Shown piece by piece: positions 2,613 to 56,101 of a DNA stretch of 64,000 nucleotides. Below the pieces are notes generated by a model. That model did no database searches. It worked only from the letters and a program-made list of their open reading frames with translations, and was not told the origin of the DNA. The number at the start of each line of letters is the position of its first letter. Position 1 is the stretch's first letter. A program made the position numbers and the translations under genes. The DNA comes from Escherichia coli. GTDB taxonomy: Bacteria > Pseudomonadota > Gammaproteobacteria > Enterobacterales > Enterobacteriaceae. The stretch lies in NCBI RefSeq assembly GCF_003018255.1, contig NZ_CP027440.1; one strand, written 5' to 3'.

Positions 2613-3149
2613 ATGCGTCGCGCTAACGATCCGCAACGGCGAGAAAAAATTATCCAGGCCACGCTGGAGGCGGTGAAACTTTATGGAATACATGCTGTTA
2701 CGCACCGCAAAATTGCTACCCTTGCCGGGGTACCGTTGGGGTCGATGACCTACTATTTTTCAGGAATTGATGAGTTGTTGCTGGAGGCGTTCAGCAGTTT
2801 TACTGAGATCATGTCCCGGCAATATCAGGCATTTTTTAGCGATGTTAGTGATGCTCCGGGCGCATGCCAGGCTATCACCGATATGATTTACAGCTCACAG
2901 GTTGCAACGCCGGATAACATGGAGCTGATGTACCAGCTCTACGCGCTGGCTAGCCGAAAACCGCTATTAAAAACGGTAATGCAAAACTGGATGCAGCGCA
3001 GTCAGCAAACGCTCGAACAATGGTTTGAACCCGGAACCGCCCGCGCGCTTGATGCGTTTATTGAGGGGATGACGCTGCATTTTGTCACCGACCGTAAGCC
3101 GCTATCGCGCGAGGAGATTTTGAGGATGGTTGAGAGGGTTGCAGGGTAG
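2613..3149 (+). CDS. rcdA: TetR-family transcriptional regulator RcdA (YbjK), 178 aa
   Basis: ORF 2583..3149; start trimmed to ATG 2613 preceded by AGAGAGGAAATGAC Shine-Dalgarno; N-terminal HTH region. Confidence 0.85.
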
Positions 3150-3168
3150 TAGATAAATTTTAGACAAC

Positions 3169-3247
3169 AAAAAACCCACCAACCTTGAACCGAAATGGCG
3201 GGGTTGATGGGCTCCACAAAATGGGGACATCAAAGAAAAGCAGTGGC
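3169..3247 (-). ncRNA. rybB: RybB small regulatory RNA (sigma-E dependent, Hfq-binding)
   Basis: Minus-strand sequence GCCACTGCTTTTCTTTGATGTCCCCATTTTGTGGAGCCCATCAACCCCGCCATTTCGGTTCAAGGTTGGTGGGTTTTTT matches the RybB sequence as I remember it, including 3' terminator hairpin and U-run; lies in the rcdA-ybjL spacer as in K-12. Confidence 0.85.
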
Positions 3248-3249
3248 AC

Positions 3250-3290
3250 TAATTAAGACTGATGCCCTGCGGAAAAGTTCTGCGGTTGTG
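3250..3290 (-). promoter_or_regulatory. Putative sigma-E promoter of rybB (-35 GAACTT, -10 TCTTA-like)
   Basis: Minus strand immediately upstream of rybB 5' end reads cagAACTTttccgcagggcatcaGTCTTAattagt, consistent with sigma-E consensus GGAACTT / TCTGA. Confidence 0.55.
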
Positions 3291-3323
3291 CAAAAAAATT
3301 TCATTTTCAGGGCAACTTCAGTT

Positions 3324-5009
3324 TTATCCTAATCCTGGCCATACCATGACGATGATTGTCCCTGCCAGCGTCAGCAGGACGTTGGCGATTGCGTAAGTGC
3401 CCGCATAGCCCAGTGCCGGGATATTACTGCGAGCTGTATCACTGATGATCTCCATTGCCGGCGCGCAGGTGCGTGCGCCCATCATTGCGCCGAACAACAG
3501 TGCGCGGTTCATTCGCAATACATAAGCACCGAACAAGAAGCAGATAACCACTGGCACCAGACTGACAATCAATCCGGCAATCAACATCTGACCGCCAATC
3601 GCGCCCAGGCCGTTATTAATACCGCTACCAGCGCTCAGACCAACGCCTGCCATAAACACCATCAAGCCGAACTCCTTCACCATGCTTAATGCACCCTGCG
3701 GAATGTAACCGAAGGTCGGGTGGTTAGCACGCATAAAGCCCAGCATAATTCCGGCGAATAACAACCCGGCAGCGTTCCCCATACCGAAACTGAATGTGCT
3801 GAACTGGAAGGTGATCATCCCGATCATCAGCCCAATAACAAAGAAGGCGCAGAATGCCAGCAAGTCAGTGACCTGGCTGTGAATCGAGATAAAGCCGATG
3901 CGATCGGCGATGGTTTTTACCCGGCGGGCATCGCCGCTGACTTGTAAAACGTCACCTTTGTTAAGCACGACGTTGTCATCAATCGGCATCTCAATCTGGC
4001 TACGTATGACGCGGTTAAGGAAGCAACCGTGATCGGTCAACTTCAGTTGTGCCAGGCGTTTGCCAACAGCGTTATGGTTTTTAACGACCACTTCTTCAGT
4101 GACGATACGCATGTCGAGAAGGTCACGATCGAAAACTTCTTTGCCATTACGGAAACTGGGATCGAGTCGGGCGTGGGCGTCAGGATAGCCTACCAACGCT
4201 ATTTCATCGCCCATTTGTAGTACGGCATCACCGTCTGGATTTGCCAGAATCCCGTTACGCCGAATACGTTCAATGTAACAGCCAGTTTGTCGATAAATAC
4301 CCAGTTCACGCAGATTTTTGCCGTCGGTCCAGGCTACCAGCTCCGGGCCGACGCGGTAGGCGCGGATCACCGGCAAATAAACCTTACGGTTGGCATCTGT
4401 GTCCAGGCCACGTTCGCGGGCGATTTGCTGGGCGCTGGTCTGTAAGTCCTGATGCTGCAATTTCGGCAAGTAACGCGCACCAACAATCAAACTCACCAGG
4501 CCGATTAAATAGGTTAAGGCATACCCGAGGCTCAGATTATCCAGTGCCAATGAGAGCTGCCTGCTTTCCATGCCGGAATGACGCAGTGTATCGCCAGCAC
4601 CGACCAGAACCGGTGTTGACGTCATAGAGCCTGCTAACATACCGGCCGTCAGGCCAATATCCCAGCCAAACAGCTTACCTAACCCTAAGGCGATGACCAG
4701 CGCACTGCCAACCATCACCAGTGCTAACATTAGGTAATTTTTCCCATCGCGAAAAAAAATGGAAAAAAAGTTCGGTCCGGCTTCGACCCCGACGCAGAAA
4801 ATAAACAGCATAAAGCCAAGATTAAGCGCGTCGGTGTTAATGCTGAAATGTTGTTGGCCTAATAACAGCGATACGACTAAAACGCCAATGGAATTACCCA
4901 GTTGGATCGAACCAAGTCGTAATTTCCCGAGACATAGCCCAAGCGCGAGGACCACAAATAATAACAGAATGTAATTCCCATTTAACAATTCGGCGACGTT
5001 TATATTCAC
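3324..5009 (-). CDS. ybjL: Putative AAE-family transporter YbjL with two central TrkA-C/RCK_C-like domains (561 aa)
   Basis: ORF 3324..5009 (561 aa); hydrophobic N- and C-terminal halves flanking a soluble central region. Confidence 0.85.
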
Positions 5010-40560: not shown

Positions 40561-40964
40561 TGCGAAAAAAAGCTCGTACTTTCGTACGAGCTCTTCTTTG
40601 AATATGGCGGTGAGGGGGGGATTGACTCGCTTCGCTCGCCCTGCGGGCAGCCCACTCACTGTGTTCGTGGTCTGTCCAACTGGCTGCGCCAGTTGTCGAA
40701 CCCCGGTCGGGGCTTCTCATCCCCCCTGGAGTGCAATATGCGAAAAAAAAGCTCGCACTTTCGTACGAGCTCTTCTTTGAATATGGCGGTGAGGGGGGGG
40801 ATTGACTCGCTTCGCTCGCCCTGCGGGCAGCCCACTCACTGTGTTCGTGGTCTGTCCAACTGGCTGCGCCAGTTGTCGAACCCCGGTCGGGGCTTCTCAT
40901 CCCCCCTGGAGTGCAATATGCGAAAAAAAAAGCTCGCACTTTCGTACGAGCTCTTCTTTGAATA
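40561..40964. repeat. Tandem array (~2.25 copies, period 178-180 bp) adjoining serW; each unit contains the 3'-terminal ~19 nt of tRNA-Ser plus the serW terminator hairpin and a ~115-bp GC-rich structured segment
   Basis: Unit starts at 40561, 40739 and 40919 (TGCGAAAAAAAGCTCG..., near-identical copies); TGGCGGTGAGGGGGGGATT (reverse complement of tRNA 3' end) recurs at ~40605, ~40785 and 40965. Confidence 0.85.
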
Positions 40965-41052
40965 TGGCGGTGAGGGGGGGATTCGAACCCCCGATACGTT
41001 GCCGTATACACACTTTCCAGGCGTGCTCCTTCAGCCACTCGGACACCTCACC
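40965..41052 (-). tRNA. serW: tRNA-Ser (anticodon GGA), 88 nt, encoded CCA end
   Basis: Minus strand reads GGTGAGGTGTCCGAGTGGCTGAAGGAGCACGCCTGGAAAGTGTGTATACGGCAACGTATCGGGGGTTCGAATCCCCCCCTCACCGCCA; long variable arm typical of tRNA-Ser; followed by hairpin + T9 terminator. Confidence 0.9.
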
Positions 41053-55863: not shown

Positions 55864-55883
55864 TACCCAATTTTTCTGAATCT

Positions 55884-55909
55884 AAAAAGCGCCTGCGGGC
55901 GCTTTTTTT
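55884..55909 (+). terminator. Intrinsic terminator of serS (AAAAAGCGCCTGCGGGCGCTTTTTTTG)
   Basis: GC hairpin followed by T7 run. Confidence 0.8.
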
Positions 55910-56101
55910 GTCTCCCTTTGATACCGAACAATAATTACTCCTCACTTACACGTAATACTACTTTCGAGTGAAAATCTACCTATCTCTTTGATTTTCAAAT
56001 TATTCGATGTATACAAGCCTATATAGCGAACTGCTATAGAAATAATTACACAATACGGTTTGTTACTGGAATCAATCGTGAGCAAGCTTGAGTGAGCCAT
56101 T

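Follow-up and report, generated by a model that had tools for sequence, protein, structure and literature searches.

Genes and features of the rcdA-ybjL spacer

The DNA analysed here, which we call the window, is a stretch of 64,000 nucleotides of E. coli chromosome. Its segment 3100..3400 is 100% identical to the corresponding DNA of E. coli strain TCM3e1, and all or part of it is matched in 5422 of 5426 complete E. coli genomes. In this segment, rcdA (ybjK) and ybjL face each other across a spacer that an earlier, sequence-only reading had put at 174 bp between convergent genes, and both the size (3150..3323) and the orientation of the genes proved right. The spacer carries rybB on the same strand as ybjL, which lies upstream of it, together with the promoter and terminator of the small RNA and, at its 3' end, the attachment core of a family of prophages (Table 1). 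The same reading had held that RybB explains the spacer fully. This is true of 3169..3300, which RybB, its core promoter and an A/T tract take up, but leftovers remain at both ends, ~19 bp towards rcdA and ~23 bp towards ybjL, and the 3' end of the gene doubles as a prophage attachment site.

Table 1. Features in and around the rcdA-ybjL spacer, in positions of the window
Feature	Position	Strand	Evidence
rcdA (ybjK), TetR-family regulator	2613..3149	+	RefSeq annotation of the 100%-identical TCM3e1; TetR-family matches
P2-like (Felsduovirus) prophage attachment core AACAAAAAACCCAT, 13/14 match	3166..3179	.	attL/attR junctions of GPEC60-12-649
rybB, 79-nt small regulatory RNA	3169..3247	-	Rfam RF00110; 78/79 identity to K-12 b4417
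Terminator U-run UUUUUU	3169..3174	-	Sequence; T run conserved in the alignment of 91
Rho-independent terminator stem-loop, 12-bp stem (RNA nt 35-46 with 64-75), 17-nt loop with small inner helix	3173..3213	-	Rfam structure, folding, covariation
5' seed GCCACUGCUUUUCUUU, target-pairing, contains CRCUGCUUUU	3232..3247	-	Identical to K-12; motif from PMC6694218
Sigma-E-type -10, GTCTTA (consensus GTCAAA), -12..-7	3254..3259	-	116 loci; consensus from PMC1804206
Sigma-E-type -35, GAACTTT in aGAACTTTT (consensus GGAACTTTT), -33..-27	3274..3280	-	116 loci
UP-element-like A/T tract AATTTTTTT, -53..-45	3292..3300	-	Position conserved; UP function putative
ybjL	3324..5009	-	NF003440 match of 1178 bits, full length; RefSeq annotation
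Spacer-overlapping ORF, 71 aa	3002..3217	-	Six-frame list
Spacer-overlapping ORF, 43 aa	3102..3233	-	Six-frame list
Spacer-overlapping ORF, 45 aa	3195..3332	+	Six-frame list
Spacer-overlapping ORF, 44 aa	3262..3396	+	Six-frame list

Identity of rybB

The entire 64-kb window was scanned with Rfam at curated thresholds, and the RybB family (RF00110) matched the minus strand at 3166..3244 with 104.1 bits, far over the gathering score of 40 (E 2.5e-20), along model positions 1-79 of 79. The K-12 MG1655 reference lists rybB (b4417, formerly p25) as a 79-nt ncRNA between rcdA and ybjL at NC_000913.3 887979..888057, and the window has the gene at the same locus, on the same strand and at the same length, with 78 of the 79 bases identical. 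An Rfam scan and an alignment to annotated rybB were the two checks that the sequence-only reading had proposed for its ~79-nt minus-strand match, and both show this match to be full-length rybB in the expected context; even the coordinate 3169, at which that reading began, coincides exactly with the annotated 3' end. The +1 nucleotide is G3247, and the 3' end at 3169 falls within the U-run. The seed, the loop and the promoter from -83 to -1 do not differ from those of K-12, while RNA nt 69 is A in K-12 and G in the window, and three more differences fall in the 16 nt directly beyond the 3' end of the gene. The rcdA (ybjK)-rybB-ybjL arrangement has also been described before (PMC1804206).

The RybB sequence was found in 5418 of the 5426 complete E. 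coli genomes. Seven RybB matches fall on E. coli records typed as plasmids, and in strain AR_0017 the sole copy on the chromosome is only 87% identical. One of the loci collected from other species, L084, comes from a record titled Chryseobacterium sp. 18061 (CACSKA010000002.1) and is almost the same as the rybB locus of Citrobacter sp. 18056 (L072), which belongs to the same study. As all other rybB loci are enterobacterial, this assembly is probably mislabelled or contaminated.

No evidence against the identity of the gene was found, and we consider it close to certain that the window carries a full-length E. coli rybB in its canonical spacer, with a sigma-E-type promoter and a covarying terminator. 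It is an already known gene, and nothing about it is novel.

A conserved sigma-E-type promoter

The proposed sigma-E-type promoter, with GAACTT at 3275..3280 and TCTTA at 3254..3258 on the minus strand, 16 nt apart, is borne out by its conservation across species and by its fit to the published consensus (-35 GGAACTTTT, -10 GTCAAA; PMC1804206). The match to that consensus extends over 8 of 9 positions in aGAACTTTT and 4 of 6 in GTCTTA, and 6 nt separate the -10 element from the +1. K-12, whose rybB promoter is experimentally strong, has the identical GTCTTA -10 element, and a study of UP elements places the rybB promoter with the strong sigma-E promoters (PMC3326320).

For the comparison across species, rybB loci were gathered from one genome per species by an exact 24-mer, RNA nt 4-27, and 116 distinct Enterobacterales loci were anchored on the +1 without gaps, including those of Escherichia, Salmonella, Klebsiella, Enterobacter, Serratia, Yersinia, Xenorhabdus, Providencia and Sodalis. 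Conservation across these loci is 97-100% in GAACTTT (-33..-27) and 100% at each position of GTC (-12..-10), at A (-7) and at T (-1). The spacer between the two elements (-26..-14) is free to vary, at <0.9 bits per column, and the A/T tract at -53..-45 is kept as a tract with varying exact sequence (0.7-1.4 bits per column). Downstream of the +1, RybB nt 1-3 are invariant in all 116 loci, which had been selected on nt 4-27 only.

Taken alone, the loose motif on which the sequence-only reading had relied is not significant: by chance, a window would contain GAACTT-N16-TCNNA 0.37 times, and the motif turned up at least once in 35 of 100 shuffles. The stricter GAACTTT-N14-GTCNNA occurs once in the 64-kb window, at 3254..3280 (-), against an expectation of 0.04. 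The promoter owes its significance to a constant spacing from the RybB 5' end and to its conservation across species.

RpoE-dependent transcription of rybB has been published for K-12, whose promoter is identical to that of the window, and for Salmonella (PMC1804206, PMC12249550). The dependence on sigma-E is strict, with promoter activity dropping to background in an rpoE deletion (PMC1804206), and from the identity of the promoters we would expect the same in the window's strain. Repression by NsrR has been reported, but the same paper saw no robust DNA binding (PMC12249550), and we assigned the rybB promoter no operator for NsrR. A scan of 2900..3600 for terminators and sigma-70 promoters returned one sigma-70-like site at 3130..3159 (+), matching at 9 of 12 positions, and with 1 found against 0.6 expected this is at chance level and was discarded as evidence.

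The terminator stem covaries

The terminal hairpin and U-run noticed in the sequence-only reading are both there, as a 12-bp stem followed by U6, and the U-run forms part of the 3' module that binds Hfq (PMC6694218). The scan of 2900..3600 missed this terminator because its loop of 17 nt exceeds the 3-8 nt to which the terminator rule was limited.

The structure was tested on 91 distinct aligned RybB sequences, in which pairs were counted for three candidate helices. In the terminator stem, 99.2% of the cells are paired, and 6 of the 12 stem pairs show compensatory changes, for example CCCAUCAACC/GGUUGAUGGG, CCCGAUAGUC/GACUAUCGGG and CCCGAGCGUC/GACGCUCGGG. Sliding the partner columns by 1-3 lowers the pairing, for all three helices together, to 23-49%. 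For the window allele the predicted hairpin energy is -22.4 kcal/mol (z = -3.4). ViennaRNA also proposes a 5' helix, CCAC/GUGG (nt 2-5 with 31-34), which is not conserved: 38 of the 91 sequences have lost its A4-U32 pair with no compensating change. This helix would occlude the seed, and its lack of conservation fits a 5' seed that is predicted to be free and single-stranded. The seed itself contains the motif CRCUGCUUUU, which is shared among sigma-E-dependent small RNAs (PMC6694218).

The G69 allele

Position 3179 is the only base between -83 and the end of the rybB gene at which the window differs from K-12, with C in place of T on the plus strand and, in the RNA, G in place of A at nt 69. 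The change turns the terminator pair U41-A69 into U41·G69. The exact 79-nt sequence of the window is present in 738 of 5420 E. coli records, while 4681 differ from it by one to three bases; G69 is thus a common natural variant of E. coli and a minority allele. As the wobble keeps the pair, the allele should be functionally neutral. That it might instead be impaired in termination or stability is suggested by the position of the difference inside the terminator stem and by the absence of G69 from the other 90 distinct transcript sequences in the alignment. However, the replacement of U-A by U·G retains pairing and moves the predicted energy of the hairpin only from -23.0 kcal/mol in K-12 to -22.4 kcal/mol, a cost of ~0.6 kcal/mol; 3 of the 91 sequences, the window among them, have U·G at this stem pair, and the allele is carried unchanged by the same 738 records. 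We therefore regard an impaired allele as very unlikely.

Other readings of the spacer

The hairpin might be merely a bidirectional terminator shared by the convergent rcdA and ybjL, with the similarity to RybB incidental. It does stand between two convergent genes, the consensus terminator scan of 2900..3600 found no separate, terminator-like site for rcdA or ybjL in the spacer, and ybjL transcripts that read through past the rybB promoter would probably end at it, the terminator of RybB. Such a reading would leave unexplained, however, why the 34 nt preceding the hairpin vary hardly or not at all from genus to genus and fit the RybB model, and why a conserved promoter lies at a fixed distance from the RybB start. 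Moreover, published work has already detected a discrete, sigma-E-dependent RNA of 79 nt in K-12 and Salmonella, where the sequence is the same.

The plus strand also argues against a shared terminator. The sequence-only reading had derived a plus-strand hairpin from RybB, and its arms CCCACCAACC and GGTTGATGGG are indeed present, but their complementarity is imperfect, since they include a C/A mismatch that in the minus-strand RNA is a G·U wobble. This is a small indication that the minus strand is the functional one. With the mismatch in its stem and CUCCACAAAAUGG in place of a U-run after it, the plus-strand hairpin would make a poor terminator for rcdA. Taken together, these points make it extremely improbable that the hairpin is only a shared terminator, and we keep to rybB as the content of the spacer.

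A small protein encoded in the spacer is equally far-fetched, and we reject it: four overlapping ORFs do appear in the six-frame list, but all four extend into rcdA or ybjL coding sequence, the RybB loop differs by 1 and 2 nt in length between species, so that no reading frame is conserved over RybB and any frame would be shifted, the substitutions in the stem are compensatory, as is the signature of RNA structure, and the curated annotation of K-12 has no protein in the spacer.

The mismatched stem and the missing U-run leave rcdA without an obvious intrinsic terminator, and with only 19 bp between its stop codon and the RybB 3' end, transcripts reading through from rcdA would contain a perfect antisense of RybB. 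Such transcripts could conceivably titrate RybB, or their synthesis could collide with sigma-E-driven transcription, and either would couple the expression of RcdA to the envelope-stress response of the small RNA; we think this improbable.

A prophage attachment site at the rybB 3' end

The attachment core consists of the 3' arm of the terminator, the U-run and three bases beyond the annotated 3' end. It was defined from strain GPEC60-12-649, in which a prophage of the P2 family, ~35 kb in length, precisely separates rcdA from rybB, its integrase adjoining rcdA and its ogr gene adjoining rybB, and in which both junctions share AACAAAAAACCCAT. As these junctions show, rybB stays intact after integration, the phage supplying a replacement end. 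The 3' ends of tRNA and tmRNA genes serve as prophage attachment sites, and the last ~14 bp of rybB are likewise a crossover core. That prophages favour the rybB 3' end is already known: Felsduovirus prophages at rybB form hotspot #29 in a survey of E. coli defence islands (PMC10121019), a Klebsiella island has been located "precisely within" RybB (PMC4048246), and the annotated attR of Klebsiella phage 4LV2017 lies inside its match to the rybB region. The window differs from the occupied hotspot in that its site is empty and rcdA directly adjoins rybB.

An 81-nt query spanning the junction is continuous in 3268 E. coli genomes and breaks at window 3178/3179 in about 1,080, in agreement with about 1,200 extra split matches among the 5,426 complete E. 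coli genomes. Judging from these split matches, around one fifth of complete E. coli genomes appear to have the site occupied. Few records share the exact 81-nt rcdA-rybB junction haplotype of the window: 50 match it at >=99% identity. The idea that C at 3179 shields the site from integration is refuted by 231 records that pair the C allele with the phage-type flank; in one of them, FDAARGOS_497, P2-family tail and ogr genes adjoin rybB.

Beyond the RybB U-run, the window reads GTTGTCTAA and K-12 reads GTTATCTAA, and many Enterobacterales loci (L006, L031, L032, L035, L045 and others) read GTTGCCTGA, which is the phage-borne flank at attR of GPEC60 (L003 3000..3020). The shared GTTGCCTGA flank could reflect widespread prophage occupancy, or an attP that carries a copy of the host flank.

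Other small RNAs in the window

The Rfam scan also returned a full-length match to the enterobacterial small RNA STnc130 (RF02084) at 55877..56011 (-), with 140.1 bits against a gathering score of 55. The intervals 40605..40741 (-) and 40965..41052 (-) hold a tRNA-Ser(GGA) gene, called by ARAGORN and Rfam, and a match to RtT (RF00391) that lies ~220 nt downstream of it on the same strand. At 45.1 bits against a gathering score of 45 the RtT match is borderline, and it may be at chance level or a degenerate RtT-like repeat.

Function and significance

By analogy with what is published for RybB, envelope stress or misfolded outer-membrane proteins would cause RseA, the anti-sigma factor, to be degraded, releasing sigma-E to transcribe rybB. 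The 79-nt RNA would then bind Hfq via its 3' module, and its single-stranded seed GCCACUGCUUUUCUUU would pair with omp mRNAs (among them ompC and ompA), causing their repression and faster decay. The load of outer-membrane proteins would thereby be lowered, which would feed back on the activity of sigma-E. Binding of Hfq by RybB and repression of omp mRNAs have been reported (PMC1804206, PMC6694218), the OmpA/OmpC targets, the seed and the Hfq/terminator module have been described (PMC6694218), and the loss of RybB raises sigma-E activity, which closes the feedback loop (PMC1804206). None of the known RybB target genes lies in the 64-kb window. A search of the window for complements of the seed gave 10 sites with <=2 mismatches against 7.9 expected, the sole perfect one being the opposite strand of rybB, and these sites were rejected as targets.

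The logic of a sigma-E promoter, Hfq dependence and repression of omp mRNAs is common to Salmonella RybB, MicA, MicL and the Vibrio RNAs MicV and VrrA (PMC1804206, PMC6694218), and MicV and VrrA have the CRCUGCUUUU seed motif in common with RybB (PMC6694218). MicA, MicL, MicV and VrrA are nevertheless separate families at other loci, whereas the element in the window is RybB proper.

RybB is among the best-characterised small RNAs of the enterobacteria and the copy in the window is a common natural allele, so the discovery value of the locus is little. Its practical value lies in annotation: in the RefSeq (PGAP) E. coli records that we inspected no feature covers rybB, and the curated K-12 MG1655 record alone lists b4417, so that an "unannotated conserved element" flagged at this spacer simply rediscovers rybB. 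The 3' end of RybB is also a frequent landing site of P2-like prophages, which is relevant whenever strains are compared at this locus.
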